Source of the DNA: an uncultured Fidelibacterota bacterium
GTDB lineage: Bacteria > Fidelibacterota > Marinisomatia > Marinisomatales > UBA1611
Reading direction: 5' to 3'
DNA length: 64,000 nt
Assembly: GCA_902559415.1 (NCBI GenBank)
Contig: CACEHW010000001.1
Span: forward strand, 45,382-109,381
In this document: positions 2,131 to 51,310 of the stretch, piece by piece
How positions within the stretch are numbered: the first letter of the stretch is position 1
Layout of the letters: the number at the start of each line of letters is the position of its first letter
The notes under the pieces: model-generated
The model's database searches: none
What the model saw: the letters and a program-made list of their open reading frames with translations, nothing else
Told to the model about the DNA's origin: nothing
Made by a program: the position numbers and the translations under genes

Positions 2131-4569
2131 ATGATGCGGAAAAATAACATTATTTTTGGTATTTGCGGGTACATTCTTGTATCTGTACTGTGCTTTGAAT
2201 TTTTGTCCGGTGGTCAATTGAATAGAACTAGTGGTCTTTATGATCTTGATGGAGACGGGCGCAAGGAAGTCCTTGTTATTAGTAGTTCTGATAGAAAAGC
2301 GTCTCTAATAGAGTTTCAAGGTAAAGTAATTAGTGATACTATCTGGTCCTACACACTGCCTAAAGGTGCTTATTTCACGGATGTTGCTATATTAGATATT
2401 GATGAAAATGGGCAACCCGATTTAGTTGCCTCTTCTAAAATAAGTGCAGATAGCAATGATGATGGCTGGTTATATGTCTTTCAAGGTATAATGAGTGGTT
2501 TTTCAAAAGTACCATTAGTAGCAGGTCATTCAGGCTTAGAACTTGATAATATAAGACCTCTAAACCTTTCTAGAGTTTATGGAGGGTCAAATCAACTTTC
2601 TGTTTCATTTGGTACTCCAGTTAGAAAAACTTTGATTTTCAAACCTGAAATTCAAAATAATAAATTAAAAATAGAAAATGCTAGGATATTATCTGACCCA
2701 TTAATCCATAATGGTTTTGGGCACATGTATTCTGGTGGTTTTACTTCATTTGGAGGTAATTATATTGCTCAATTTTCAGCGGAAATAAATACACTAAAAA
2801 TTGCTATTTACAATGCAAATGAGAATTTTAGACATGTTGTAACTGAAATTTTAAGCCTTGGTAATGCTAGGGGTATAATAGGTGCAGAAGTTCAAGCTTA
2901 CAAGAATCTTAAAAAAGGTGAGCAAGGTCTTTTAATCCCATTTAGGACGGGAGAAGTTAAAATATTAAATATTAATTCTGGTGTAATTAGCCTTGATGAC
3001 TCAAAATTTTCGCATGAAGAGTTGTTTTTAGAAATGGAGGACCCTGACAAATCAGATATTTTAGATTTAGTTAGTTCTAGGATTGAATCTGGTTTTTATA
3101 ACAAAACAATTACAAAAGATGATTATGCTCACAACAAAAACGCTAATAGATCAAGCTATAATAAAAAACCAATTGATGGGCCAACGTTAGTTGATTATTT
3201 AAATGATGCAGGTATTATTAAGAAGCCTAAATTACAAAGTAAGGTTGATATTCCGATAGAGAGCTCTGATATGAATAGTGAAATATGGGCTGCTAAAGCT
3301 TCAGTAAAAGTCGAGCAAATAGATTCTACTTTATTATCAATAAATGATTCAATTTTTAAAAACCCGATACCAGATGAAGATAAAGAAATTGCTTTTCATA
3401 AAACTGTTTTTGGGCCTTCTGATTCAGTTGCTGTGGTAGAGACTTGGGAAGATACTTTACGAAATGTCCTAGTACCAGAATCGATAGATTTATCTGATAA
3501 AGAAGAGGATGAAAGAGGCATAGACTTGTATTATGTTATGGTTATGACTCCATCAAAAGGGAATAAAGGTAGGTATGTATTTGATGGTGAATCACCATTT
3601 GGTATAAATGTTACCCAAGTCCCCCCTATGGGAGACCCTACCCATTTCCAACATAGTATATCAGCAAATACAAATTATTTACGAAGAGGGAATGATTATG
3701 ATTTTGCTTATACCTTAAAGGAGCAAGTTTCTGATAGTGTAACTACTCTTACAATGGTTCATGATATGCAAACAAATATAATATTTATGTCTATTTCGCC
3801 TGAAGCTGACTCTGTATCTCAGTCCTACCAGCCAGAAGCTTTTGACCCTAAATTATTTGAGTTTCCTGACTACTTTTTTGAAGGATTCCCAACAAGCTTA
3901 GGGATGGATTTTAAAGATAAGCTTATCAAATTTTCATTTGATGATTCAGGTGATAGTGCTAATTATCAAGGATTATATCTATCAGCTACTACACCATCTA
4001 ATCCTTCTCAATCATTAGCGGTATTTTTAAACGAAGGCACATTACAAGCCATTAGAGGCGAGGTTAAAGTAAGAGAAAATGGTTCTAAAAAGATAACGAC
4101 TCAATTTGATATTGCCGGTTATTTAAAACCAGCAGCAATGTTTTCTAGATTGATTCAAGAAGAATTTTCAGACTCGCTTAAAACTAATTTACTCCAGGGT
4201 GCTTATTTAGAAGAGCCTCTTTTTGGCCCTAATGGACAGTTGCCTAAAGTTTCCCATGAGCGAAGGATTCCTGAAGCTCAATTCGATCAACAAAATCCAA
4301 AAATTCCAGTAAATCCTCTTAAAGGAATTTATCCAGAAGGGCAAGGGGTAACTACAAATTCTAAAGCCAAATTAGAGCTTGCTGCTCCTGATCCGCAAAA
4401 TCCAGTTGATAGTCCAGCCTCAACCGACATTCATGATAGTACGTCTGATAGTCTAAAGCTAGAAAATGCTAAGGTTACACCTAACTTATTAAATAATAAT
4501 AAAAAATTAAATGATGTGCTTCCAGAATCAATGAATATTGATTCTACTAATATGGAATTGAATCAATAA
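2131..4569 (+). CDS. Membrane-anchored FG-GAP-like repeat protein, function unknown
   Basis: 812-aa ORF with an N-terminal hydrophobic anchor (IIFGICGYILVSVLCFEFL). It has two Asp-rich FG-GAP/VCBS-type loops (LYDLDGDGRKEVLVISS; LDIDENGQPDLVASS). The remaining ~650 aa are unrecognised and the tail is P/N/S-rich. Confidence 0.6.
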   Translation: MMRKNNIIFGICGYILVSVLCFEFLSGGQLNRTSGLYDLDGDGRKEVLVISSSDRKASLIEFQGKVISDTIWSYTLPKGAYFTDVAILDIDENGQPDLVASSKISADSNDDGWLYVFQGIMSGFSKVPLVAGHSGLELDNIRPLNLSRVYGGSNQLSVSFGTPVRKTLIFKPEIQNNKLKIENARILSDPLIHNGFGHMYSGGFTSFGGNYIAQFSAEINTLKIAIYNANENFRHVVTEILSLGNARGIIGAEVQAYKNLKKGEQGLLIPFRTGEVKILNINSGVISLDDSKFSHEELFLEMEDPDKSDILDLVSSRIESGFYNKTITKDDYAHNKNANRSSYNKKPIDGPTLVDYLNDAGIIKKPKLQSKVDIPIESSDMNSEIWAAKASVKVEQIDSTLLSINDSIFKNPIPDEDKEIAFHKTVFGPSDSVAVVETWEDTLRNVLVPESIDLSDKEEDERGIDLYYVMVMTPSKGNKGRYVFDGESPFGINVTQVPPMGDPTHFQHSISANTNYLRRGNDYDFAYTLKEQVSDSVTTLTMVHDMQTNIIFMSISPEADSVSQSYQPEAFDPKLFEFPDYFFEGFPTSLGMDFKDKLIKFSFDDSGDSANYQGLYLSATTPSNPSQSLAVFLNEGTLQAIRGEVKVRENGSKKITTQFDIAGYLKPAAMFSRLIQEEFSDSLKTNLLQGAYLEEPLFGPNGQLPKVSHERRIPEAQFDQQNPKIPVNPLKGIYPEGQGVTTNSKAKLELAAPDPQNPVDSPASTDIHDSTSDSLKLENAKVTPNLLNNNKKLNDVLPESMNIDSTNMELNQ

Positions 4570-4582
4570 GAAGATTTAAAAA

Positions 4583-7500
4583 ATGAAATTTATTCTTCAA
4601 AAAATAAAATTATTAGTTCCTTTAATTTGGATTCTAAGTTCAGTTTCTTCACAAAAGATTGTCCATCTAGAGGGATCCTATGATTTAGATGGTGATAATC
4701 TATTTGAATTTATTTCTCTCGAATTAGACCCACAGAAAAATGTGTTTCCTACAATGATAAGGTATAATGAGGTAGATGGTGATGGATATCAAACTCCAAT
4801 TTGGGAATTTGATGCCCCAAAAGAATTAGATGGTTATTTTGTAGATGCAAAGATTGGGGATCTAGATGGTAACGGGGTGCCAGATTTAATTATTGTTATG
4901 AATCTTTCAAGGTTTGGAACAAATGCAACACCCCACGTGTTTGTAGCTGTATATAGTTGGGAAGAAGATTCTTTTTCTGAACTACCATCAGTCACTTTAG
5001 ATATCGGTAAGCAAGATAGGTCTTTAAGATGTAATAATTTTTCAATGCTTGATCAGGATGCTGACGGAGATCAAGAGCTAGTTTTATCTTTAGGTAGCCC
5101 ATACAGAGGATTCGCAATTCTTGATTTAGATAGTCAAGGTAGATTAGTTATCATTAAAAAGATAAGGCCTGATGAGCTTTTAGTAGGCTCTGGCTTATTG
5201 TATTCTGCAATTGTTGATTATGATAACGATGGCTACGAAGACCTATTAGCTATAAGCCCTGAAGGGAATACAATAAAAGCACAACCATTTTATAATATTG
5301 GTGGGATATTTGATTCTGGGCCTCTTATAAGAAAAAACTTTGATGGTATCAGCGGTATTTTACATAATTCATTTCAACTTACTGATTGGGATTCTGATGG
5401 TTTCAAAGATGTATTGGCTTCTTTTAGATCTGGAGATATTATTGCTTTAACTCTTACGCCTGCTACTTTAGTAATCGAGAGAGTCCCGGTTCAGCCTGGT
5501 CCTTTAACTCAAATTGAAATTGCAGATTTTAATCAAGATTCATTTAAAGACCTTCTAATGCTATCATCAGATATTAATGCATTAACGATGGTCTCCGGTG
5601 AAGATGGGGGGATGGAAAGCGTACGAAACGTAATGTCTAAAGTCCCAGAAGAAATGCAAGTTTTTTCTATGTTGCCATTAACCAAGTTAGGTAAATATAC
5701 TGGCAATGTCATGGTCTCGGCATGGGATGGGAAGGAAAATTCAATATATGTATTGGATTTTGGGAAAAAGTCTGCTGAATATGATCAAGGGTTTTTATTA
5801 AGCACAGATTTTATTTCTGAACAATTACCTGATTTACTTTCTAATATTGAAGATGTGCAGCCAGAAGTTCCAGAGATTTATGTTGAAGTTATCCCTGAGC
5901 AATTACCTCAGCTCCCTCAGCCTGAAGAAGAAGTGATAACTGAATTAGGTGAGCAAAGGATAGCCAGCATACCTCAAGCATTAGACCCTTCAGTAATAGA
6001 GGGTGATGTTTTAAAAGAACAACCAAAATCAGTCCCTCCTAAAAAAGTTATTCGCACGCTAGAAAGCCCTAAAACGCTTAAAGAAGAAGAAATGATTGGG
6101 CAACGTTTACCTAAGCATGTTCTTCCTCAATATATTTTGACATTAAATCAACCTTTTGAGTATACGCTATTAAGAGACACATCCGAAGCTTTTCACAGTT
6201 TCAGATGGCAAGTCCCCCCGCCGAAAGGGATGTTTTTTCATTACGAAAGTCAAACTATTAGATGGGTTCCGAATAAAGAACAATTAGATGCTTTCCCTGT
6301 TTCATATTTGGTTAGGGTAAAGGTTGACGAAATCATGGAATCTTTGTCAGCTTCTGGAAGTAAAAATCAAGAATATAAAACGGTCCCTGTTTTAGAAAGT
6401 AGAGATGAGCAAGTTTGGATTTATGTCAATGATCCACCAAGGTTTTTGACTCAGCCATTAGGTACTGAATTTGTTGCTGGAGGCGTGTTTCAATACGAGC
6501 CAATTGTAAGAGATAGAAATAAGGATGCATCTTTGCAATTCTTTTTAGAAGTTTCACCTCCAGGGATGACTATTAATGAAGGAGTATTGTATTGGAAATC
6601 TGATAGTATTAATGCAGACCAATATGATGTTAGACTTGTTGTTTCCGATGGCTTTGAAAGAGATGTCCAGGAGTTTCAGCTGTCTGCTAGATCTGGCATT
6701 AGAATACTATCCAAAGCGCCTACACTAGCAACAGTAGGGGAAAAATATGATTATGATGTAAAAGTCTGGAGACAAAGAACAAGCCAAGAAGCAAATTATA
6801 AATTATTTTTTGGCCCTAGCGGTATGAGAGTAGATAAAAAATCTGGTTTACTTACATGGGTGCCAAATGAAGCACAGATTGACACAGTAGAATATGCTTT
6901 AGTTTCTACTCATGGAGTAGCTTCAGATACACAATTTGTTAAAGTTTTTGTAAATCATCCGCCCATCATTCAAAAAGCTCCCCCTCCAATGACAAAAATA
7001 AATGTAGGGGCGATATGGGATTTTGATTTAAAGACGCAAGACCCAAATAAGGATGATAAATTAATTTATATAGCTCATGTTCTTCCAGAAGGTATGAGGA
7101 TGGACCCACATTCAGGTAGACTCCACTGGGAGCCTTCGACTGCTCAGGTTGATTTTCATAAGCTAAGGATTGAGGTTTCTGATGGGAATCTTAGCAAATT
7201 TATAGATTCAGAATTTTTTGTAAATGCACCTATTAAAATTGTTTCCGTCCCAACTATGACAGCCACGGTAGGAAATGAGTATAGTTATAAATTAATAACT
7301 GTAGATAGAAATAAAGGCGCATTACTTCCTTTTGATAAAGTAGTTAAAGTTAAAGATGTAAGTAACACAAAAATATATAGTATAAATATTTCAGATGACG
7401 TCGTCATTCAAAATATTGATAGATTTCTTGGTGATTGGTACAACGCGAATGAGGTATATTATGTCAACCCTAAATACCCAGCTGATACTTTAGTCTCTAG

Positions 7501-8458
7501 AGTAAATCTTAAAAGGTATGTTCAATCAGTATTTTATGAAGATAACAGATTATGGGTGATTACTTCTACAATTAATGGTCGTACGATAAAGATAAAAGAC
7601 TTTCTTTGGGAATTTTTTCAAGGCAATAAAGGTAAGCCTCCTCGCATCCTTGTTGAGAGAGTCAACCCTGTTCGGTTCACTTTAACAGATTTCCCCGAAG
7701 GAATGGAAGTAGATGAGTCTTTAGGTGCAATAAAGTGGACACCGAAAAAATCTCAAACAGATATGCATACAATATCTGTTATGGTTTCTGATGGATATAC
7801 TAAAGATGAACAAATCTATGAGGTCTATTCAAATCATTTGCCAACAATTATATCAAACACTCCTAGAATGGCTTTAGTTGGAGAATTATTTAAATATCAA
7901 GTAAGAGTTGAAGACTTAAATGAAAGTGCTAATTTAAAATATACCTTGATAAAAGGTCCTCATGGTATGCAATTAGATAAAAGTGGAAAAATTTTATGGG
8001 TGCCTAAAGCGGCCCAAATAAATTATAATGATTTTGAAGTATCTGTTACGGATGGGTATGGTACAGATATTCAAACTGGTAAAATATTTATAAATAATCC
8101 ACCTTCAATTATTTCTACTCCTAAGCCTGTTGGGCTTACAGGTCATACTTGGAGATATAAACTAACGACTGAAGATTTGAACGGTGATAGGGTAACTTAT
8201 CGTGCAGTTAGATTGCCTAAATTTGCAAAGTTTGATAGAAGAACTGCGACTATTGAATGGACTCCAAGGAAGAACCAAGACGGAGTAAATGATTTTATTT
8301 TAATGGCAGTTGATGAACACGGGGCAACAACCACTCATGATTTTCAAGTTCATGTTTTTTATGATCCAAGCGCAAAGCAATTAGTTAATAGTGGGTGGCC
8401 ACTTATGTTAACTTTTGTAGGTGTAGTCTTTGCTTGGGGTGCAGGACAAATGAACTAA
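4583..8458 (+). CDS. Large envelope protein: FG-GAP-type beta-propeller, seven cadherin-like (dystroglycan-type / He_PIG Ig-like) modules and a C-terminal TM helix
   Basis: 1291 aa with a signal-like N-terminus. Six D-x-D-x-D-G loops occur at aa 34, 93, 157, 212, 268 and 315 (e.g. GDLDGNGVPDLIIV, VDYDNDGYEDLLAIS, TDWDSDGFKDVLAS). A P/Q/E-rich linker follows. Seven ~90-aa modules (nt ~6107-8369) share N-x-PP-x-I ... G-x-x-[FWY]-x-Y ... P-x-GM-x-x-D ... G-x-[IL]-x-W-x-P ... V-x-V-[ST]-DG. The terminal hydrophobic helix is WPLMLTFVGVVFAWGAG. Confidence 0.7.
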   Translation: MKFILQKIKLLVPLIWILSSVSSQKIVHLEGSYDLDGDNLFEFISLELDPQKNVFPTMIRYNEVDGDGYQTPIWEFDAPKELDGYFVDAKIGDLDGNGVPDLIIVMNLSRFGTNATPHVFVAVYSWEEDSFSELPSVTLDIGKQDRSLRCNNFSMLDQDADGDQELVLSLGSPYRGFAILDLDSQGRLVIIKKIRPDELLVGSGLLYSAIVDYDNDGYEDLLAISPEGNTIKAQPFYNIGGIFDSGPLIRKNFDGISGILHNSFQLTDWDSDGFKDVLASFRSGDIIALTLTPATLVIERVPVQPGPLTQIEIADFNQDSFKDLLMLSSDINALTMVSGEDGGMESVRNVMSKVPEEMQVFSMLPLTKLGKYTGNVMVSAWDGKENSIYVLDFGKKSAEYDQGFLLSTDFISEQLPDLLSNIEDVQPEVPEIYVEVIPEQLPQLPQPEEEVITELGEQRIASIPQALDPSVIEGDVLKEQPKSVPPKKVIRTLESPKTLKEEEMIGQRLPKHVLPQYILTLNQPFEYTLLRDTSEAFHSFRWQVPPPKGMFFHYESQTIRWVPNKEQLDAFPVSYLVRVKVDEIMESLSASGSKNQEYKTVPVLESRDEQVWIYVNDPPRFLTQPLGTEFVAGGVFQYEPIVRDRNKDASLQFFLEVSPPGMTINEGVLYWKSDSINADQYDVRLVVSDGFERDVQEFQLSARSGIRILSKAPTLATVGEKYDYDVKVWRQRTSQEANYKLFFGPSGMRVDKKSGLLTWVPNEAQIDTVEYALVSTHGVASDTQFVKVFVNHPPIIQKAPPPMTKINVGAIWDFDLKTQDPNKDDKLIYIAHVLPEGMRMDPHSGRLHWEPSTAQVDFHKLRIEVSDGNLSKFIDSEFFVNAPIKIVSVPTMTATVGNEYSYKLITVDRNKGALLPFDKVVKVKDVSNTKIYSINISDDVVIQNIDRFLGDWYNANEVYYVNPKYPADTLVSRVNLKRYVQSVFYEDNRLWVITSTINGRTIKIKDFLWEFFQGNKGKPPRILVERVNPVRFTLTDFPEGMEVDESLGAIKWTPKKSQTDMHTISVMVSDGYTKDEQIYEVYSNHLPTIISNTPRMALVGELFKYQVRVEDLNESANLKYTLIKGPHGMQLDKSGKILWVPKAAQINYNDFEVSVTDGYGTDIQTGKIFINNPPSIISTPKPVGLTGHTWRYKLTTEDLNGDRVTYRAVRLPKFAKFDRRTATIEWTPRKNQDGVNDFILMAVDEHGATTTHDFQVHVFYDPSAKQLVNSGWPLMLTFVGVVFAWGAGQMN

Positions 8459-24472: not shown

Positions 24473-25150
24473 TTGGAAAAAGTTTCTGCAATTATTCTTG
24501 CTGCTGGGTCTGGAAGTAGGTTTGGAGAAAGGAAGCAGTTTAAAAAGTTAAATGGTAGTTCTATTTGGACTTATTCATTAGATACTTTCAACAAGTCCAA
24601 TTGTTTTCAAGAATTTATTTTAATCGTATCAAAAGATTCGTTAAATGAATTAAAAGATTCGGAAGAGTTTTACCAGTTTTCTAAAACAATCAATATTAAA
24701 TTGGCTTGTGGAGGAGAATCGAGGCAAGATTCAGTGTATAATGGTTTGCAATTAGTGGATGAAAATAATAATATTATTTGTATTCATGATGCAGCGAGGC
24801 CATTTGTAAAACAGGAACATATTAGAGCTGTTATCGAAGCATGTTCTATTTATGATGGTTCTATATTAGCTATACCAGCTACAGATACTATAAAGAAAAT
24901 GCAAGGCGGTATTGTTGAAAAGACAATTGATAGAGATTCTATTTGGTTGGCGCAAACCCCACAAGCTTTTCAAAAAGATAAACTTTTACATGCAATTGAA
25001 CTAGGTTCTAATATAAAAATTACTGATGAGAGCACGCTTATGGAGCTCGCAGGTTTTAAAATAAAAATTATTAGTGGAGACTCAAGCAATTTGAAAATCA
25101 CAAGAAAAATTGATTGGGAGTTAGCAAAAATAATTGAAAGTGAAAAATAA
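24473..25150 (+). CDS. ispD: 2-C-methyl-D-erythritol 4-phosphate cytidylyltransferase
   Basis: TTG start. AIILAAGSGSRFG and IHDAARPF motifs. 225 aa. Confidence 0.85.
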   Translation: MEKVSAIILAAGSGSRFGERKQFKKLNGSSIWTYSLDTFNKSNCFQEFILIVSKDSLNELKDSEEFYQFSKTINIKLACGGESRQDSVYNGLQLVDENNNIICIHDAARPFVKQEHIRAVIEACSIYDGSILAIPATDTIKKMQGGIVEKTIDRDSIWLAQTPQAFQKDKLLHAIELGSNIKITDESTLMELAGFKIKIISGDSSNLKITRKIDWELAKIIESEK

Positions 25151-25153
25151 AAA

Positions 25154-25642
25154 ATGGTTCGTTCAGGTATCGGTTATGATGTCCATCAATTAAAAATTGG
25201 GTTAGAATTATATATTGGTGGTGTAAAAGTTGAATCCGATTATGGTTCTCTAGGGCACTCAGATGGAGATGCCTTAATTCATTCAGTGGTTGACTCCTTA
25301 TTAGGTGCTGCTGGTCTTGGAGATATTGGCAAATATTTTCCAAGCGATCAAGAAAAGTGGGCAGGTGCAAAAAGTGAAATATTTTTATTTGAAGCAAAAA
25401 ACATGCTTATTGAACACGGTTTTCAAATAGCAAATATTGATTGTACAATTATATTACAGAGTCCAAAAGTTGGGCCATACATTTCTAAAATCCGTAAAAA
25501 TATTTCAAAGATGCTAGAATTAAATGAAAAAAAAGTGTCTATTAAAGCTACTACCACTGATTATTTAGGCTACATTGGAGAATCGAAAGGCTGGAGCGCA
25601 ATTTCTATAGCAACAATTTTTGAAATTAATGAAAACAGTTAA
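25154..25642 (+). CDS. ispF: 2-C-methyl-D-erythritol 2,4-cyclodiphosphate synthase
   Basis: GIGYDVHQL ... GHSDGDALIHSVVDSLLGAAGLGDIGKYFP. 162 aa. Confidence 0.9.
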   Translation: MVRSGIGYDVHQLKIGLELYIGGVKVESDYGSLGHSDGDALIHSVVDSLLGAAGLGDIGKYFPSDQEKWAGAKSEIFLFEAKNMLIEHGFQIANIDCTIILQSPKVGPYISKIRKNISKMLELNEKKVSIKATTTDYLGYIGESKGWSAISIATIFEINENS

Positions 25643-26477
25643 ACTTAATTCTTATGCAAAAGTCAATATTGGCCTAAAGTTATTACAAAAAAGAATTGAT
25701 GGTTATCATGATATAAGCACAGTTTTTCAGGAAATAGATCTATATGATGAAATAACCATTTCTAAATCTAGTAATAGTGTGTTGGAATTTTATTCTAATG
25801 TTGATTGGTTAAAAAATGATCAACATAATTTATGTATTATAGCATATAATCGTATAAAAGATTTGTATGACATTGGTGGTGTAGATATCAACTTAGTAAA
25901 AAATATTTCAAAGGGAAGTGGCTTAGGGAGTGGCTCTTCAAATGCAGCAGCAGTAATGAAAGGGCTAAGAAAAATTTTTAACCTTGAGGTAACAGATAAA
26001 GAGCTTGAAAAAATAGGTGAAGAAATAGGTGCTGATGTACCTTTTTTTATAAGGGGGGCTACACAAATAGGAGAGGGCATAGGAGAAAAGCTTTCAGATG
26101 TAAAGTGTAGAATAGATGGATCATTTTTAATTATTACTCCAGATATTTCAATTGATACAAAATGGGCTTATTCTCAAATTAAAAATGTTTTGGATAAAGC
26201 CAATTCAGCTACTAAGTTTTCCGACTCATTTTGTGGTGAGACAATTAGTCTTGACACATTAAAGTTTTTTGAGAACGATTTTGAATCTGTTGTTTTTCCA
26301 ACATATCCAGAGATTGGTGTAATAAAAAGCGAACTAATTGCATTAGGTGCAAAGTTTGCCAGTCTGTCGGGTTCTGGCTCGACTGTGTTTGGGATTTTCG
26401 ATGATAATGCTAGAATTAATAAAGCATTTTCTCATTTCTCTCCAATGCATAAGACGCATATTGCTCATCCTGTTTAA
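25629..26477 (+). CDS. ispE: 4-diphosphocytidyl-2-C-methyl-D-erythritol kinase
   Basis: GHMP-kinase motif GSGLGSGSSNAAA and N-terminal AKVNIGLKLL. The track starts at TTG 25620. I prefer the ATG at 25629 (MKTVKLNSYAKVN), which still overlaps the ispF stop. Confidence 0.85.
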   Translation: MKTVKLNSYAKVNIGLKLLQKRIDGYHDISTVFQEIDLYDEITISKSSNSVLEFYSNVDWLKNDQHNLCIIAYNRIKDLYDIGGVDINLVKNISKGSGLGSGSSNAAAVMKGLRKIFNLEVTDKELEKIGEEIGADVPFFIRGATQIGEGIGEKLSDVKCRIDGSFLIITPDISIDTKWAYSQIKNVLDKANSATKFSDSFCGETISLDTLKFFENDFESVVFPTYPEIGVIKSELIALGAKFASLSGSGSTVFGIFDDNARINKAFSHFSPMHKTHIAHPV

Positions 26478-44419: not shown

Positions 44420-46222
44420 CTACTTTATAAAAAACGTCTTTCTCCTAGTATTTATTTTTTCTTCAAGATCAATTATTTTTTCTTTTTCTAACGGTGTTTT
44501 TTCTTCTTTAGAATTTAATTTATCCAATTCGAGTCTTAAAAATTGAACGTCACGATCAAGTTTTTCAAGTCTACTCTTCATTTGTTTCGATAATATCTTT
44601 TTAAAATCATCGATTTTATCACTGTCTGGAGAGTAGTAAATATTAGTATTCCCTCTATCTGTATCTTCCCAAAATGTTGGCCCACTGAATCTGATTCTAT
44701 TATATAGTCCCTCCATTAAATTCAGGTAGGTTTGATTATCAAAATAAGCAAGGTCATCAAGTACATCTGCGACAATAGTTTCTGCGAAATCAAAGTTTTC
44801 AATTTTTATATAATGAAGAGCTAAACCAATTTGCAATACTCGCACACCATTATTTACAGTCTGATCTAAATCATCTTTTGGATAATCTGGAGGATTATCA
44901 AGTTGTAAAATTTCTTTTAATAAATGTTCCTGCAGCTCAATATCCCAATTTTTTTCAGATATAAGGATGGATATCTTTTTTAGTTCAGTAGTTAAAACAT
45001 CTACAATAAAATATAGTGAAGGGTTGTTAGCTGCTTGTTTATAAATTTCATTACTATAAAATTTGAAATAGAAGTATCCCATTTTTAATAAATCAATTTT
45101 ATTTTTATCTACGTAGCCTTGTAACAAAGTAGAATAGTGGAATGCTAAATTGTATAAGTTTCTAGGTTCATTATTCTTCACTGCATGCTTTATTGCAAAT
45201 CTCATGAATGTATTAAATCTTATATTGATATCCGTTATTAAGTTATCTTGTTTAAGTTCTAAGGCTAAAAGCCCGACTGAGCTAATTTCATTAGCAATAA
45301 GTGACGCCAGTTCATATTCGCCATTTTCCATTTTTCTTATATATGCATTACCCATCATTTTAAAAGATTTTACCTCATAAAACGTTTTTCTATCTTCTAT
45401 ATCTTTATATTGATGCTCGATATATGTTCTGAAAGTTGGATTGTTTCTAATAGTATCTGTAGCAGTGAAAAATTTTGCGTCATAAGAGTCTTTGTTCATC
45501 ATATACACTCTCACAGTATCGCCAACTCTGCGAATAATTTCTGTCTGAGCTTCTTTGAAAGATATGTACTCAAGTAAATCATCGAATTGGTCTATTGTGG
45601 ACATTAGTTGATACTGATAATGTTCAATGACTTTAATATTATTCATTGTTAATTGGATGGGCTTTTGCTTTAATCTTTTAATATCAGAAATGTTTAACGA
45701 ATATAGTTTTTTAATAACATTATCTGTCTTGGAATAAAGCAAGATGTAAAATATATATGGCAATGATAAAATAGATGATAAAGGCAAGTAGATATAAGTA
45801 TTTAACATCACACTAGATAATCTATTCATTGGCTCAAAATAGTACATAATTATTGTCGAATGAATTGATGCAAGAATTAAGAACCATATAAAAATAAGAC
45901 TTATCCAATCCCTTACAAATAAATCCATTAGTTTTGGAGTAGATTCTGCTGCTATCGCAATAACAATTATTAATGTACCCAAAACCGTAGCTAATACTCC
46001 TCCCCATATTTCGGGAGCAAAAGTAAGATCTACAGCACCATGAGCATCTTTGTTAATATTAAAGAATTGCTCAAGTAATGAAATGATTTGTGGATAAAGC
46101 TGATGAAATAAAGAATCACTTATGAGGATGATGGATAATACGATTACCGATGAAGCTAGTGATCTGTTTTTATTTATCAGATTTAATATGCTTGCAAAAA
46201 ATATTGTAATATTATTGTTCAT
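44420..46222 (-). CDS. Membrane protein with a large helical cytoplasmic domain, function unknown (N-terminus DUF2254-like)
   Basis: 600 aa with four or five N-terminal TM helices. The segment IAIAAESTPKLMDLFVRD resembles the Q-x-SPR-x-x-x-F-x-x-D signature I recall for DUF2254. The ~420-aa helical domain ends in a coiled-coil-like tail. Confidence 0.4.
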   Translation of the reverse strand: MNNNITIFFASILNLINKNRSLASSVIVLSIILISDSLFHQLYPQIISLLEQFFNINKDAHGAVDLTFAPEIWGGVLATVLGTLIIVIAIAAESTPKLMDLFVRDWISLIFIWFLILASIHSTIIMYYFEPMNRLSSVMLNTYIYLPLSSILSLPYIFYILLYSKTDNVIKKLYSLNISDIKRLKQKPIQLTMNNIKVIEHYQYQLMSTIDQFDDLLEYISFKEAQTEIIRRVGDTVRVYMMNKDSYDAKFFTATDTIRNNPTFRTYIEHQYKDIEDRKTFYEVKSFKMMGNAYIRKMENGEYELASLIANEISSVGLLALELKQDNLITDINIRFNTFMRFAIKHAVKNNEPRNLYNLAFHYSTLLQGYVDKNKIDLLKMGYFYFKFYSNEIYKQAANNPSLYFIVDVLTTELKKISILISEKNWDIELQEHLLKEILQLDNPPDYPKDDLDQTVNNGVRVLQIGLALHYIKIENFDFAETIVADVLDDLAYFDNQTYLNLMEGLYNRIRFSGPTFWEDTDRGNTNIYYSPDSDKIDDFKKILSKQMKSRLEKLDRDVQFLRLELDKLNSKEEKTPLEKEKIIDLEEKINTRRKTFFIK

Positions 46223-46476
46223 GCTGATGTAAAGTAGTAAAACATTGTCAATGGAAACTACGATTTTGATATATGTTTTTCAATATTGAAGAAGATTTTA
46301 TATCTATATATTATTTAAAATCATATATGTGAGTTGAATCGGTTTTTATTGCTCTTTCACATAAACCGATGATAACTTCTAATTAGCTCCATTGAGTTTA
46401 GAGGTTCGTAGACTCATCATAGAGGAGTAATAGTAATTACGAACTATAAATGTAAATTAATTCTAACGAGGTAATT

Positions 46477-46908
46477 ATGTCAGATTGGACAAATAGTCAC
46501 GACTTAGTATATGCATTTGTTTGTGTTTCTTTTTTAGCAGATGGAGATGTTGACGAGTCTGAAAAAGAAGCAATGCGTGGCAATGTTAAGGTTATGCTTC
46601 CAGATATGGGGGATGATGAGTATCATCAAGTTGAAAAAGAAGTAATTGATAAATTTATTGCCCTTGGCGATGAAGCTTCTCGTTTTGATCAATATGGTTC
46701 TTCTCTCAGTGCAATCAAAGAAATGTTTTCTTCTGATGATGATCGTTATAAGGTAATTAAAAACCTTGCTTATATTGCTAGAGCTGATCAATTCATTCAT
46801 GAGAATGAAATGAAAATGATTGAGCAAGCAGTCAGCGATCTAGATATGGAAGATAAAGTTAGTTTGGTTAAAACTGAATCTACTCTTTTTGTTGATTTTA
46901 AAGGGTAA
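46477..46908 (+). CDS. TerB-like (tellurite-resistance TerB / DjlA-N fold) small acidic protein
   Basis: 143 aa. FLADGDVDESEKEAM and IARADQFIHENEMKMIEQ resemble the paired A-D-G ... E-x-E helices of TerB-family domains. GAGG lies 7 nt before the ATG. Weak call. Confidence 0.45.
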   Translation: MSDWTNSHDLVYAFVCVSFLADGDVDESEKEAMRGNVKVMLPDMGDDEYHQVEKEVIDKFIALGDEASRFDQYGSSLSAIKEMFSSDDDRYKVIKNLAYIARADQFIHENEMKMIEQAVSDLDMEDKVSLVKTESTLFVDFKG

Positions 46909-46928
46909 TTAATAAAAAAATATATTAC

Positions 46929-46962
46929 GATGCCTGGGTTTCTTCCAGGCATCGTTTTTATT
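46929..46962 (+). terminator. Rho-independent terminator of the TerB-like gene
   Basis: Perfect 9-bp stem GATGCCTGG / CCAGGCATC (46929-46937 and 46945-46953) with loop GTTTCTT, followed by GTTTTTATT. It lies 21 nt after the stop at 46908. Confidence 0.75.
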
Positions 46963-46977
46963 ATAATAGGAATAAAA

Positions 46978-47133
46978 ATGTCTGATAAAAGAACACATAG
47001 CGATGATAGACGAAGTGATGATCGCAGAAATACAGAACGAAGAGTAAATAATTTATCAGTTGAAACTGATAGAAGAGCTGAGGGCGATAGAAGGCAAGAT
47101 GAGCGCCGCTCTGAAAAAGACCGACGCTCTTAA
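46978..47133 (+). CDS. 51-aa (D/E)RR-repeat mini-protein, function unknown
   Basis: MSDKRTHSDDRRSDDRRNTERRVNNLSVETDRRAEGDRRQDERRSEKDRRS contains seven x-[DE]-R-R units. The track ORF starts at 46930, but its first 16 codons are the terminator hairpin. The ATG at 46978 is preceded by AGGAATAAAA. Expression is unproven. Confidence 0.4.
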   Translation: MSDKRTHSDDRRSDDRRNTERRVNNLSVETDRRAEGDRRQDERRSEKDRRS

Positions 47134-47146
47134 TATTAATTTCTAC

Positions 47147-47821
47147 TTAACAGTAGACCCTTTCCATTCCTGAGAGGAAGTTATTTAAAGAATGTAATGC
47201 AAGCTCGATGGCGTCGAGCGCTTCTTCCTTCTTTTTATCAGTATCACAAACATCACCAATTAAATCTTTAATAACTTGCCTATGAATGATATCCGCTGAT
47301 TGATGAACTTCAAAGAACTTTAATGTATCTTCGCCATTTTTAGCACCGTAGTATTTTTTCAAACCATCAATTTTATTTTCAGCAATTTCAGGAATCATAG
47401 ATTCGTAACAATAAAGAGCACTGAATCCAACATGGTAGCGTTCATCTTTTGATAGTTTCATAAAATTATTTACTAATTCTTCAGTTTCTTTAATCGCAAC
47501 AGTATCTTTTACATCTTTTCTCTTTTTACCCATGCCTTCTGCAAAACGCATCCATAATTCTGGATGGTTTTCTTCACCACGCTCTTCATCGATCAAGTTT
47601 TCTAGAATCTCTTGTCTTACAGATATATTATCACAGTTTGAGTGAATTGATGATAAGTATCTTGGGAAAGCAGAAACATGTTTAAAATATTGAGCAGCAT
47701 ATTCTTGAATGACAGACTTATCAAGTTCGCCAGCATTCCAAGCTTTATAAAATGAGTGATTTAATAAATGATGCTTTTCAATTTTATCTTCAACTATATT
47801 TAAAAATTCAGTTTTATTCAT
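47147..47821 (-). CDS. CADD (Chlamydia CT610)-type heme-oxygenase-like di-metal oxidase (PqqC/TenA superfamily)
   Basis: 224 aa, colinear by eye with CADD as I remember it. Shared blocks are HLLNHSFYKAWNAGEL, YFKHVSAFPRYLSSIHSNCD, NLIDEERGEENHPELW, ALYCYESMIPEIAENKI and FFEVHQSADIIH. The full E/H, E and H-x3-D-x2-H ligand set is present. Confidence 0.75.
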   Translation of the reverse strand: MNKTEFLNIVEDKIEKHHLLNHSFYKAWNAGELDKSVIQEYAAQYFKHVSAFPRYLSSIHSNCDNISVRQEILENLIDEERGEENHPELWMRFAEGMGKKRKDVKDTVAIKETEELVNNFMKLSKDERYHVGFSALYCYESMIPEIAENKIDGLKKYYGAKNGEDTLKFFEVHQSADIIHRQVIKDLIGDVCDTDKKKEEALDAIELALHSLNNFLSGMERVYC

Positions 47822-47850
47822 ACATTACTCCAAAGGTTTAATGATTTAAA

Positions 47851-49131
47851 TTATCCTAGCCATATACCGGCACAGAAAAATAACCCCGTTAGGAAGTGTA
47901 ATCCAATAGTTCCTGCATTAGCAGGTTGTAATAATCTATTATCATAATGTTTGTATAATGTCTTTATTGTAAAGATACTATATACTGATGTTATCAGCGA
48001 CACAAGTGATAATGTTGGGAAGGTAAGTGGATTAGTCCAAGATAATGCAATGATACTAATAAATGCTCCTATAATTAAAGCAACATATCCTATTCTTGCT
48101 TTTTCTGGTCCAAAAACAACAACCAAATTATTTTTACCAGTTGCTTTATCACCATCATGATCAGGAAATTGATTTACAAATACTATTGCAGCTACTAGAA
48201 AACCTATTGGTATACCCGCTAATACTGCATCCATAATGTGGGTCATATCACCGCCTGTTTGAACTAGAAAACTGCCCGCGACCATTAGTGGCCCAAAATT
48301 CAGACCAATTAAAAGCTCTCCCATTCCTTTTCTAGATGCAAACCTGAATGGGGGAGCTGTGTAGAACAGGCCAGATAAAAATCCAATGATTCCAAGGTAC
48401 AGAATGTTTATACCTGCCTTGTAGATGAGCGGTATACCAACAATAGCACTTAAGGCAAAAGTTATTACAGCAACATTTAACATGCCTTTAGCTGAGATGA
48501 GTCCCATTTGAATACTCCTACTACCTCCAGAAAAAGGTACCATGTAGTTATAATTTGCCTCATCTGTTCCACTAGTGTGATCGTAATAGTCATTAGATGT
48601 ATTGGTACCGATATGTAAGAAAAAACCACCTAGCATTGTTAAAGCAAAGTAAATCCAATCAATACTTACAAATTTACTTGCTACAGCTGCTCCCAGAAGG
48701 ATAGGAACAATTGTTGCAGTTAAAAATGGTAGTCTCATTATTACCATCCAACTGAATAGTTTTGTTCCAAAACTAATTTTTGGACGGACTTCATCAGCAG
48801 ATTTATCAGCAAGCGGCGATGTTACTCCACAATAGCCAATGTGGTTTCCTTCTTTATCTTTAGTAGGTGTGATTTTAATCTTACATGGCATTTCAGTTCC
48901 ATCCTTATGCAGAAATACCGTGTTTCCCTCCCACTTTCCTTTTTCAACTGATTCTGCAAGCCAATTAACAACATGCCCTAGCACTATCTGACCAGCACTA
49001 AAATCACTTACTCTACCTTTACCAATAATTTCTTGTTCTGAATAGCCAAATAATTGCTGCGCGCCCTCACTAAAAGTTTCGATCTTACCATCAAGATCGC
49101 AGGTTATTACGCTTTTTAAATTCTTGCTCAT
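47851..49131 (-). CDS. PAS domain fused to a UbiA-superfamily (MenA-like) aromatic prenyltransferase
   Basis: The N-terminal ~110 aa are PAS-like (SVITCDLDGKIETFSEGAQQLFGYSEQEIIGKG ... FLHKDGTEMPCKIKITPTKDKEGNHIGYCGV). Eight or nine TM helices follow, with the Asp-rich motifs NDYYDHTSGTD and NQFPDHDGDKATGKNNLVV. The track start is 49185. I prefer the ATG at 49131 (MSKNLKS), which has AAGGAA 10 nt upstream. Confidence 0.7.
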   Translation of the reverse strand: MSKNLKSVITCDLDGKIETFSEGAQQLFGYSEQEIIGKGRVSDFSAGQIVLGHVVNWLAESVEKGKWEGNTVFLHKDGTEMPCKIKITPTKDKEGNHIGYCGVTSPLADKSADEVRPKISFGTKLFSWMVIMRLPFLTATIVPILLGAAVASKFVSIDWIYFALTMLGGFFLHIGTNTSNDYYDHTSGTDEANYNYMVPFSGGSRSIQMGLISAKGMLNVAVITFALSAIVGIPLIYKAGINILYLGIIGFLSGLFYTAPPFRFASRKGMGELLIGLNFGPLMVAGSFLVQTGGDMTHIMDAVLAGIPIGFLVAAIVFVNQFPDHDGDKATGKNNLVVVFGPEKARIGYVALIIGAFISIIALSWTNPLTFPTLSLVSLITSVYSIFTIKTLYKHYDNRLLQPANAGTIGLHFLTGLFFCAGIWLG

Positions 49132-49218
49132 TTTATGTAATTCCTTTATCATTAAAAATATTAAGCGTTTAAATTTAAGTATCAATATTTTCTTAGAACG
49201 AAACTTATTTTATTTTTT

Positions 49219-50526
49219 ATGAGCACAGTTGCAAAAAAGATAGCCTTTCACACATTAGGTTGTAAATTGAATTTTTCAGAAACATCTTCATTATCAAGAG
49301 ATTCTCTTAAATATGGTTATGAGAATGTTAATTCGAAAGAGTTTGCAGATATTTATGTTTTTAATACGTGTTCTGTAACAGAAAATGCAAACAAAGAAAC
49401 CCTTAAACTTATTAGAAGGAGTAAGCGGCTAAACCCAAATGCTTTTATTACTTTGATAGGCTGCTATGCTCAATTAAAACCTGAAGAGCTTATCGGGATT
49501 AAAGATGTTAATCTAATTTTGGGTACTGCTGATAAATTTGACTTACTAAGTCACTTAGATAAAGTAGATATCTCAAATGATATAAAATCAAGTATAAGTG
49601 GGAATATTGATGATGTAGAGATATTTAATCCTTCTTTTTCAAACGATGACCGAACTAGATCTTTTTTGAAAGTACAGGATGGATGCGACTATAATTGCAC
49701 ATTTTGTACTATCCCGCTTGCTAGAGGAAAAAGTAGAAGTTCTTCAATTAATAAAACCATCAATATTGCTAAAGATATTTCTAAAACAAACACTAAAGAA
49801 ATTGTGCTAACTGGAATAAATATTGGTGATTTTGGAAAAGGCACTAATGAAACTTTTTATGATTTGATAAAACAAATGGATTCTAGAATAGATATAGAAA
49901 GATTAAGAATTTCATCTATCGAGCCTAACTTACTCACCGATGAAATAATTGAGTTTTGTTTTTCATCAAAAAAGTTTATGCCTCATTTTCATATACCCTT
50001 GCAATCAGGGTCAAATAAGATGCTTAAGTCCATGAAGAGGAGATACACTGCGCAATTATATTATGATAGATTAAATAAAATAAAAAGTTTTGATGAAGAT
50101 GCATGTATCGGTGTAGACGTTATTGTAGGCTACCCCTCAGAATCTGAGCAGGATTTTCTTGAAACTTATAATTTTCTGAAGAATCATGATGTTTCTTATT
50201 TACATGTTTTTACATATTCTGAAAGAGAAAATACAAAAGCCATAAAGCTTGAACCCGTTGTGCCTTGTGAAGAAAGGTCCAGAAGGTCGAAAATTTTGCG
50301 AGAGCTTTCTGATCAAAAAAGAGATAATTTTTATGAACGGTCTGTTGGGCAAATAAGACCTGTATTAGTTGAAAAAAGTAAAAATGGGATACTTTTCGGC
50401 TACACCGACAATTATATTAAAACAAGAATCCAAGGGCCTATTTCTTTAGAAAATACAATACAAAATGTTTTTATTTCAGAAGCTAAATCCGGTTATGTAG
50501 AAAGTGAGGTAGTATCAGTTAATTGA
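49219..50526 (+). CDS. mtaB: tRNA (t6A37) methylthiotransferase MtaB (radical SAM MTTase)
   Basis: N-terminal UPF0004 Cys triad (HTLGCKLN ... FNTCSV ... GCYAQ), radical-SAM motif CDYNCTFCTIP and a TRAM-like C-terminus. 435 aa. MtaB versus MiaB is judged from size and N-terminus only. Confidence 0.8.
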   Translation: MSTVAKKIAFHTLGCKLNFSETSSLSRDSLKYGYENVNSKEFADIYVFNTCSVTENANKETLKLIRRSKRLNPNAFITLIGCYAQLKPEELIGIKDVNLILGTADKFDLLSHLDKVDISNDIKSSISGNIDDVEIFNPSFSNDDRTRSFLKVQDGCDYNCTFCTIPLARGKSRSSSINKTINIAKDISKTNTKEIVLTGINIGDFGKGTNETFYDLIKQMDSRIDIERLRISSIEPNLLTDEIIEFCFSSKKFMPHFHIPLQSGSNKMLKSMKRRYTAQLYYDRLNKIKSFDEDACIGVDVIVGYPSESEQDFLETYNFLKNHDVSYLHVFTYSERENTKAIKLEPVVPCEERSRRSKILRELSDQKRDNFYERSVGQIRPVLVEKSKNGILFGYTDNYIKTRIQGPISLENTIQNVFISEAKSGYVESEVVSVN

Positions 50527-51310
50527 TATCTGTTTTTTTTATTTCAAACAAAATTTGATCCCAAAACTTTATTCTTGACTGCATTACATTTTTTCCACAA
50601 TCAATACTTTCTTTCCACTTTTTCTCATCATCTCCGCATATTTCTTTAATCATCTTTAGTGCTAATGGTGTATGTTCATTTTCATCAAGACCTATATGTC
50701 TATCAAGATAATAAATGAAAGATTTAAATTTACCAGAAGAATTACTTTCAAGATCTTGGACAAGCTCACGGAACATATCAGGAATTATTTCTTCTCGACC
50801 CAAAGTAAAGATAGTCGCATTGAGATGTGGAGCATCCATGGTTATATATTTAAAGGTATCAAGAACAAATTCTTGAGCAGCTTTTGGAGCCTCGCTTTTC
50901 ATCAATGAAGTATGTAGATCTGAATTATCAAGTTCATTTAGAAATTTTTCTATCTTTTTTGTATCTGCTCCTGCTTCTTTCATAGCATGGTAATATATTT
51001 CAAAATGGCTAAGGTACTGTCCATATCGATCAACATCTGACTCTTCAGCAAGAACTATTTCATTCAACATTCTAGATAAGTTCCCATTTGTTTTTGGGCG
51101 CCATGGTATTTCAACACATGTAAATTCTTTTTGAAGAGATTTCAAAACAGACATGAAGTCCCATACTGCAAAAACATGGTTTTCCATAAAAACGTGTAAA
51201 TGCTTTTCTGTTTTAATAGAATTATATATAGGGTGATTTTTTAACTGGTTTCTTTCACTTTGAGTTTCATCAAGAATGTTAAGTAGATTATTTTTTAGCA
51301 GTTTGAACAT
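50519..51310 (-). CDS. DUF3050-like heme-oxygenase-fold protein
   Basis: 263 aa. HPIYNSIKTEKHLHVFMENHVFAVWDFMSVLKSLQ ... NEIVLAEESD ... YLSHFEIYYHAMKEAGADT matches my memory of DUF3050 (MgoB/PvfA-like). Not verified. Confidence 0.55.
   Translation of the reverse strand: MFKLLKNNLLNILDETQSERNQLKNHPIYNSIKTEKHLHVFMENHVFAVWDFMSVLKSLQKEFTCVEIPWRPKTNGNLSRMLNEIVLAEESDVDRYGQYLSHFEIYYHAMKEAGADTKKIEKFLNELDNSDLHTSLMKSEAPKAAQEFVLDTFKYITMDAPHLNATIFTLGREEIIPDMFRELVQDLESNSSGKFKSFIYYLDRHIGLDENEHTPLALKMIKEICGDDEKKWKESIDCGKNVMQSRIKFWDQILFEIKKTDIN

Follow-up and report, generated by a model that had tools for sequence, protein, structure and literature searches.

Two minus-strand open reading frames (ORFs) lie within positions 47147-49185 of a 64-kb stretch of DNA from an uncultured Fidelibacterota bacterium (contig CACEHW010000001.1; the whole stretch is called the window here, and coordinates are positions in it): upstream, a fusion of a PAS domain to a UbiA-superfamily prenyltransferase, and downstream, a homologue of the Chlamydia protein CADD (CT610). 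We found that the fusion is a sensor-fused member of an uncharacterised, MenA-like sister clade, and that the CADD gene adds an ordinary new member to a known family. On balance, we lean towards a two-gene unit of two different cofactor-biosynthesis enzymes, a MenA-like fusion and a p-aminobenzoate (pABA) synthase, which share the history of a neighbourhood and not a pathway. A first reading of this DNA (the original prediction) had instead proposed that the product of CADD is prenylated by the fusion. Synteny was compared across 30 genomic loci, further contigs and 80 metagenome loci.

Profile searches and residue mapping confirmed both ORFs and the domain calls of the original prediction, namely a PAS domain, a MenA-flavoured UbiA body and a CADD homologue with its full ligand set. 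Over residues 159-414 of its TTG-extended ORF, the fusion prenyltransferase (PRENYLTRANSFERASE) scored 106.6 bits with Pfam UbiA (PF01040; cutoff 34.2), and its score with PAS_9 was 47.2 bits (cutoff 27). An AlphaFold2 (AF2) model built on 22 diverse fusions (pLDDT 89, pTM 0.85) revealed a PAS fold, an amphipathic helix and nine transmembrane (TM) helices (Table 1). Together, the PF01040 score, two Asp-rich motifs and nine TM helices place the protein in the UbiA superfamily, and the motifs NDYYDHTSGTD and NQFPDHDGD exist as they had been read before. Foldseek matched the body to UBIAD1, DGGGPS and AfUbiA, and UBIAD1 (8djk) was its top PDB match by both sequence (E = 4e-11) and fold (TM-score 0.76 on target).

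Within the superfamily, MenA models were by far the top NCBIfam matches of the fusion, every one of them below its curated cutoff: TIGR00751 scored 91.1 against 102.15, NF004751 scored 149.6 against 264, and all others were lower, so that the protein stays short of the score set for a MenA equivalog. NCBIfam ChlG and UbiA-type models gave less than 42 bits, the UbiA-type ones at most 18. The body is 25-26% identical to E. coli MenA and to the MenA of Marinimicrobia operons, and 16% identical to E. coli UbiA; the Marinimicrobia operon MenA reaches 253 bits with TIGR00751 and is 44% identical to its E. coli counterpart. Both of these enzymes carry the canonical motifs NDYGDxxKGxD and NNxRDxxxD, which are not those of the fusion. 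Common to all relatives recovered around the query, PAS-fused or plain, is the signature NDY[FY]DxxSGxD plus N[EQ]FPDxxxD, after which we refer to the NEFPD clade. In a neighbour-joining tree, in which the deep split is clear and the internal branches are not robust, the NEFPD clade and canonical MenA were sister clades, with E. coli UbiA outside. Phylogeny of the TM body, a check proposed with the original prediction, thus placed it not inside canonical MenA but beside it, and the NCBIfam scores and the tree ruled out MqnP, UbiA or ChlG identity. Plain members of the clade mostly just pass TIGR00751 (107-132 bits; cutoff 102), and PAS-fused ones fall just below (79-93). Other N-terminal domains in the clade are a PNPOx-like barrel (Nitrososphaerales), EF-hands plus PAS (MGII) and unassigned extensions of 160-200 amino acids (aa).

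The fusion resembles MenA (E. coli b3930; TIGR00751 and PRK06080 models) in its UbiA-superfamily fold and two Asp-rich motifs, and in the partners of its relatives, a men-type thioesterase and a shikimate operon, those of a plain clade member being MenG and a polyprenyl synthase. It differs in belonging to the sister clade, in its NDYYDHTSGTD and NQFPDHDGD motifs, in its N-terminal PAS of ~125 aa and in its location outside a men operon. UBIAD1, the human MenA homologue and closest solved structure, keeps NNTRD, lacks a sensor domain and is regulated via a partner, HMG-CoA reductase. The 4-hydroxybenzoate polyprenyltransferases UbiA and Coq2, which also accept pABA, supplied the analogy behind the original prediction; they belong to the same superfamily, but are set apart from the fusion by the low identity to E. 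coli UbiA and the low UbiA-type scores given above.

We next considered the genes around the relatives of the fusion, where the informative partners are quinone- or chorismate-related. In 16 related loci the fusion is preceded, at a distance of 3-40 nt, by the gene of a hotdog thioesterase that is 54-59% identical to the thioesterase (TE) of canonical Marinimicrobia men operons, which run MenG-TE-MenF-MenD-MenB-MenA-MenC/E. Used as a lineage probe, the thioesterase gave three clear context classes. In another Marinimicrobia lineage, a 43%-identical fusion is the last gene of a complete shikimate operon; a plain NEFPD-clade member lies in an operon of MenG/UbiE, polyprenyl synthase and UbiA; and in Nitrososphaerales the clade includes fusions with a PNPOx-like domain, which has the fold of quinone reductases. 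The window itself holds none of the men, mqn, ubi, pab or fol genes. On the evidence of the MenA models, UBIAD1, the plain members that pass TIGR00751 and these partners, a quinone-type role of the fusion appears most likely, and we hold with moderate confidence that it is a 1,4-dihydroxy-2-naphthoate (DHNA) prenyltransferase.

CADD keeps similar company elsewhere. It heads a CM-PDT-TyrA-DAHPS-EPSPS-SDH operon near a canonical men operon (L047, L038/L053), and in these sister lineages a canonical men operon with plain MenA either lies convergent to the aromatic amino-acid/shikimate operon or interrupts it. As a separate observation, several Marinimicrobia (L053 1-20888; L077; L105) have the shikimate operon split between its shikimate dehydrogenase and chorismate synthase genes by a complete, inverted men operon; the insert comprises TetR, MenG, thioesterase, MenF, MenD, MenB, MenA and a MenC/E fusion, and in L053 CADD stands at the outer edge of the cluster. 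A hotdog thioesterase from the family of the men-operon enzyme was also seen in low-GC marine lineages (L082, L085, L088, L092, L094-L097, L109, L111), where a long operon for purine biosynthesis has it between purN and purH.

By every criterion that can be read from its sequence, the downstream protein is an orthologue of the self-sacrificing pABA synthase. It scored 269.4 bits with TIGR04305 (cutoff 200) and matched PDB entries 9pj4 ('4-aminobenzoate synthase', E = 1e-52) and 1rcw (CT610, E = 4e-44). The likeness to CT610 and the complete set of metal ligands, both noted in the original prediction, held on mapping: E79, H86, E140, H173, D177 and H180 are CT610 E81, H88, E142, H174, D178 and H181. 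Furthermore, the sacrificial Tyr of CT610 (Y27) corresponds to Y25 and its amine donor (K152) to K150, and Y41, Y45 and W90 are essential or relay residues (CT610 Tyr43, Tyr47 and Trp), residue roles being those established in CT610 and NePabS (PMC9522330, PMC11965152). All told, 13/13 functional residues of solved 4-aminobenzoate synthases are present, and functional residues and metal ligands are kept in essentially all 120 Marinimicrobia-type homologues examined. The two positions reported to set metal preference (PMC11965152) are mixed: Tyr139 matches CADD (Mn/Fe), and Phe169 matches NePabS (Fe/Fe). Thus the protein is like CADD/CT610 of Chlamydia trachomatis and NePabS of Nitrosomonas europaea in family, ligands, sacrificial Tyr, donor Lys and relay residues, and unlike them in its mixed metal-preference positions and in lying outside a folate cluster. 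Such a cluster is a feature of the family; the 64-kb window contains no folate genes, in line with the earlier remark that none is adjacent.

The two genes are probably co-transcribed as one unit, as the original prediction had it. They share a strand, a short spacer and a ribosome-binding site; no terminator-like hairpin was found between them on the minus strand, and spacers measure 26-46 nt in all 16 relatives that keep the pair. The predicted 29-nt spacer and GGAG at the junction were both found, with the GGAG 6 nt before the ATG on recount and not 7. Placing the contexts of the loci on the tree of the fusion showed how the pair has fared. Among the 16 loci, the fusion comes first in 10 and CADD in 6. 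Eight loci of the window clade, its partial locus L023 and the deep-branching L021 have mtaB diverging from fusion and then CADD, an order that is probably ancestral for Marinisomatales; the order with CADD and then fusion between divergent mtaB and convergent carB occurs in one clade (L008, L013, L017, L039-41). Tandem duplication followed by reciprocal loss readily produces such a swap, without any need for selection.

In the remaining contexts CADD is absent from the locus (L010/L019/L020; L022, with MetC upstream; L018; the L009-L016 clade; and the 16-locus thioesterase clade), so that it left the locus at least five times within Marinisomatales, and the fusion shows no relaxation. The fusion is 84-92% identical among lineages (L010, L039, L017, L022, L007) in which GcvP is ~62% and CADD 75-83% identical, a disparity with GcvP that points to constraint of unusual strength or else to a recent transfer inside the phylum. 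Because the fusion remained highly conserved through the losses of CADD, its function does not depend on an adjacent CADD. A survey of CADD-UbiA neighbourhoods found the fusion-CADD adjacency confined to one order, Marinisomatales, and no CADD was found near the fusions of MGII archaea or of the P0287 and P0273 lineages, which speaks against the pairing on which the original prediction was built. In addition, ThrC-MetC is followed by the fusion in L022 and by CADD in L047, and the MetC proteins of the two are 92% identical. Read most simply, the fusion and CADD would both have long belonged to a chorismate/aromatic-cofactor neighbourhood that was reshuffled again and again, and in the window clade they came to stand, and remained, side by side.

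In the arrangement we favour, the fusion would be a nine-TM membrane polyprenyltransferase of the NEFPD clade, with its Asp-rich motifs facing the cytoplasm by analogy with UbiA-family structures, and would join a polyprenyl tail to an aromatic acid derived from chorismate, with DHNA the likeliest, in (demethyl)menaquinone synthesis. The PAS domain, tethered via the amphipathic helix, would sit at the cytoplasmic face, where UbiA-family active sites open, and may gate or tune access or catalysis on a ligand or redox cue. CADD would act as a single-turnover dimetal oxygenase, which with O2, its own Tyr25 (cut out in the process) and Lys150 as amine donor would yield one pABA, for folate. The adjacency would be a remnant of a wider neighbourhood of CADD, aromatic amino-acid and shikimate genes, men genes and the prenyltransferase, and co-transcription of the two genes would give co-expression, not substrate channelling.

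Several observations weigh against this arrangement. The pair stayed adjacent through one order swap with short spacers in 16/16, which also fits selection for co-expression. The body of the fusion is not canonical MenA, given its 25-26% identity, its scores below every equivalog cutoff and the replacement of the Arg of NNxRD by Pro, and DHNA as its substrate is therefore unproven. The thioesterase family is found inside purine operons of low-GC lineages as well and so is not men-specific; its adjacency is therefore supportive, not decisive. Finally, lineages that have canonical men operons with plain MenA (L038, L047) interleave phylogenetically with fusion-bearing lineages (identities are 71% for GcvP and 83% for CADD between L038 and L039, and 59% and 68% between L039 and the window), which leaves room for a fusion that exists alongside canonical MenA and has another function. 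Interleaving could mean that many genomes have both canonical MenA and a fusion paralogue, or that redundancy was resolved differently by lineage.

This last point leads to an alternative that we regard as unlikely, though it deserves to be taken seriously: the fusion would be a paralogue that coexists with canonical MenA and, under PAS control, prenylates another aromatic head group to give a second quinone or a lipid, CADD being an unrelated folate gene. The sister-clade position with its altered motifs, the scores below the MenA cutoffs, the interleaving of lineages and a conservation far above that of GcvP or plain MenA over comparable distances all agree with a paralogue, as do the non-men contexts in other lineages (CYTH, CREG barrel and flavodoxin genes; YjeF_N and a Rieske-thiamine diphosphate enzyme). 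However, no locus or contig among those examined has both plain MenA and the fusion, and one men operon, that of L104, lacks MenA. A men-type thioesterase, a shikimate operon, and MenG with polyprenyl synthase are what a MenA needs, and plain NEFPD-clade members pass the MenA equivalog model. A search for plain-MenA homologues returned, at 71% identity or more, only the L038-type lineage, and when the window clade's own men genes were sought among the 80 metagenome loci, the fusion alone matched the window. The L104 operon (3456-8442) reads thioesterase-MenF-MenD-MenB-MenC/E and leaves no room for MenA between MenB and MenC/E.

One of the distinctive features of the fusion is its PAS domain. 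Its identity as PAS follows from the PAS_9 score above cutoff and from a Foldseek TM-score of 0.82 with a root-mean-square deviation of 1.3 Å to 3lyx, an uncharacterised PAS; the next matches were the flavin-binding PAS domains of NifL, Aer and LOV. The likeness to these sensors is one of fold only. The flavin contacts of the LOV consensus (GxNCRFLQ Cys, two Asn and one Gln) are replaced at the aligned positions by GKGRVSDF, His, Lys and Thr, on which grounds a LOV/flavin sensor was rejected, and the output of the fusion is an enzyme in the same polypeptide and not a kinase or transcription factor. Between clades, identity is 80% in the PAS domain, 71% in the body and 59% in the linker; invariant columns make up 51% of PAS versus 44% of the body, and Cys11-Asp12 and Arg40 are almost invariant. 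The conservation of PAS above the body, its invariant columns and the modelling of the protein as a single unit (pTM 0.85) suggest that PAS is a functional part of the fusion.

Whether this part senses anything bears on a second alternative, in which an enzyme of otherwise ordinary MenA type would carry PAS as no more than a dimerisation or folding module, or as a docking site for a soluble partner from the pathway, MenB or the thioesterase for example. Dimerisation is a common role of PAS domains, no flavin- or haem-binding residues are recognisable here (the LOV Cys/Asn/Asn/Gln set being missing), and PNPOx or unassigned extensions of 160-200 aa fill the same position elsewhere in the NEFPD clade. 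A structural module of this kind is nonetheless improbable in our view, being at odds with a conservation that exceeds that of the catalytic body and includes the almost invariant Cys11-Asp12 and Arg40, and with the EF-hands ahead of PAS in the MGII version, which point to signal input.

The model of the original prediction, in which CADD would make pABA or a tyrosine-derived, 4-hydroxybenzoate-like intermediate that the PAS-gated fusion prenylates to an aminobenzoate or novel quinone, now appears very improbable. It is true that the unit is tight in either order (10 loci and 6 loci), that both enzymes handle aromatic carboxylates, that UbiA and Coq2 are known to accept pABA, that the fusion body is not canonical MenA and that the 64-kb window has no folate genes. 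Yet the adjacency is found in no order but Marinisomatales, CADD was lost from the locus five or more times with the fusion under strong constraint throughout, the thioesterase takes the upstream place in 16 loci, and fusions of other phyla have no adjacent CADD. The body is only 16% identical to E. coli UbiA, of the pABA-accepting branch; CADD keeps every pABA-synthase residue, and its neighbours in sister lineages are a canonical men operon and genes for aromatic amino acids. Moreover, CADD-type enzymes are single-turnover (PMC9522330, PMC11965152), which would suit a vitamin-level demand better than the supply of a membrane lipid. We see just as slight a chance that the NEFPD clade is an unrecognised family of ligand-gated prenyltransferases (with PAS, EF-hand and PNPOx inputs) that was transferred among SAR406, Chloroflexota, MGII archaea and Thaumarchaeota, coexists with canonical MenA in Marinisomatales and prenylates an aromatic acid from a variable operon partner (pABA or a tyrosine-derived acid from CADD, a thioesterase product elsewhere) to an undescribed prenylated aminobenzoate or quinone.

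To return to the sensor-fused MenA-like protein, its architecture recurs in marine bacteria and archaea. The source genome and all related genomic loci belong to Marinimicrobia (SAR406; Ca. Neomarinimicrobiota); the relatives include MED-G177 (97% identity) and TMED217 (90%), and the fusion is plentiful in metagenomes from the sea. When cluster representatives were searched exhaustively, ~20 further full-length PAS-UbiA clusters of 30-50% identity came up, whose named members belong to Chloroflexota/Dehalococcoidia, another lineage of Marinimicrobia, marine Euryarchaeota of MGII type, in which EF-hands are added, and a metagenome-assembled genome of Micrarchaeia; the architecture is therefore neither unique nor lineage-specific. 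Public pipelines label relatives of the fusion MenA, 'UbiA family prenyltransferase' or hypothetical. No paper on a PAS-MenA fusion or its clade was found in the searchable literature, in agreement with the original prediction, whose author knew of no characterised PAS-prenyltransferase fusion, and we found nothing useful there on quinone synthesis in Marinimicrobia or MGII. In MGII-type archaea (L031-L034, 8001-9626) the EF-hand, PAS and UbiA protein is 541 aa long, with a CYTH-domain gene upstream and CREG/DUF2470 FMN-barrel and flavodoxin genes downstream. In L044 and L045, PAS-UbiA is followed by a YjeF_N gene and a 648-aa fusion of Rieske and thiamine-diphosphate-enzyme domains that is weakly MenD-like (22% identity).

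The features of the locus are collected in Table 1. A TTG at 49185 was ruled out as the start of the fusion by the lengths of its homologues (422-429 aa); the true start is the ATG at 49131, and 49132-49185 is 5' leader or promoter. Promoter-like hexamers lie at 49185-49158 on the minus strand, and others at 49235-49207 overlap the start of mtaB; their count is not above shuffle expectation, which makes them weak evidence. No Rfam family matched when 46000-50000 was scanned for riboswitches and leaders.

Table 1. Features of the fusion-CADD locus, with window coordinates (CDS, coding sequence)
Feature	Coordinates	Strand	Evidence or remarks
PAS + MenA-like (UbiA-superfamily) prenyltransferase fusion CDS, 426 aa	47851..49131	-	ORF, Pfam UbiA + PAS_9, homologue lengths, AF2; stop codon 47851-47853
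PAS domain, residues ~5-108, N-terminal, cytoplasmic (predicted)	48808..49119	-	PAS_9 3e-12; Foldseek TM-score 0.82 to 3lyx
Linker + amphipathic helix, residues ~109-133, PAS to TM1	48733..48807	-	AF2 helix 121-132; least conserved segment, 59% between clades
Nine-TM prenyltransferase body, residues ~134-426	47854..48732	-	AF2 helices; UBIAD1 8djk is top PDB match
First Asp-rich motif NDYYDHTSGTD, residues 180-190	48562..48594	-	N180, D181, D184, D190 invariant in 22 diverse fusions
Second Asp-rich motif NQFPDHDGD, residues 320-328	48148..48174	-	N320, P323, D324, D328 invariant in 22 diverse fusions
Intergenic spacer, 29 nt, GGAG 6 nt before CADD ATG	47822..47850	-	Sequence; without terminator-like hairpin on minus strand
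CADD-family 4-aminobenzoate synthase homologue CDS, 224 aa	47147..47821	-	TIGR04305, PDB 9pj4 + 1rcw, residue mapping
Strong bidirectional hairpin, 11-12 bp stem, 7 G-C pairs	46927..46955	.	~190 nt past CADD stop; candidate terminator for fusion-CADD unit and convergent terB-like gene
Divergent intergenic region, 87 nt, shared with mtaB; probable promoter + leader of two-gene unit	49132..49218	.	Promoter-like hexamers
mtaB	49219-50526	+	Divergent neighbour

Other genes near the pair were noted as well. The plus-strand orf67 (46930-47133), an Arg/Asp/Ser-rich low-complexity ORF, has its start overlapped by the hairpin at 46927-46955 and is only 59-72% conserved where its neighbours are 93-99%; it may be a 3' untranslated or terminator region rather than a gene. 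Between gcvP and mtaB, 1.4 kb from the pair, a DUF3050 protein (50519-51310, minus strand; PF11251, 312 bits), which we take to be a second protein of the haem-oxygenase-like fold, is found only in the window clade (L001-L006, L024) and is absent at the same position in L010, L019-L021 and L039. A 600-aa protein (44420-46222, minus strand) has no Pfam or NCBIfam match and is syntenic in all close relatives (82-94%). The nearest related function is a cluster of the MEP pathway ~22 kb away (24473-26477, plus strand), consisting of IspD, a 162-aa ORF assigned as IspF by position and size only, and an IspE-like GHMP kinase.

Of the two proteins, it is the sensor-fused member of a MenA-like sister clade that is new, the CADD family, MenA and the UbiA superfamily being already known. 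If PAS, or EF-hand and PNPOx domains in relatives, controls prenylation, synthesis of a respiratory quinone would be under direct, post-translational and signal-dependent control by a fused sensor, and this would be so in some of the ocean's most abundant heterotrophs (SAR406 and MGII archaea). The unusual conservation of the clade (84-92% for the fusion versus ~62% for GcvP) makes it a good candidate for structure-function work. In addition, an intact CADD-type pABA synthase throughout Marinimicrobia suggests that organisms of the marine water column widely make folate by an O2-dependent, self-sacrificing route, which bears on models of B-vitamin and pABA exchange. Both the quinone-control and the CADD-folate points stand without the idea of a joint pathway, which the evidence does not favour.

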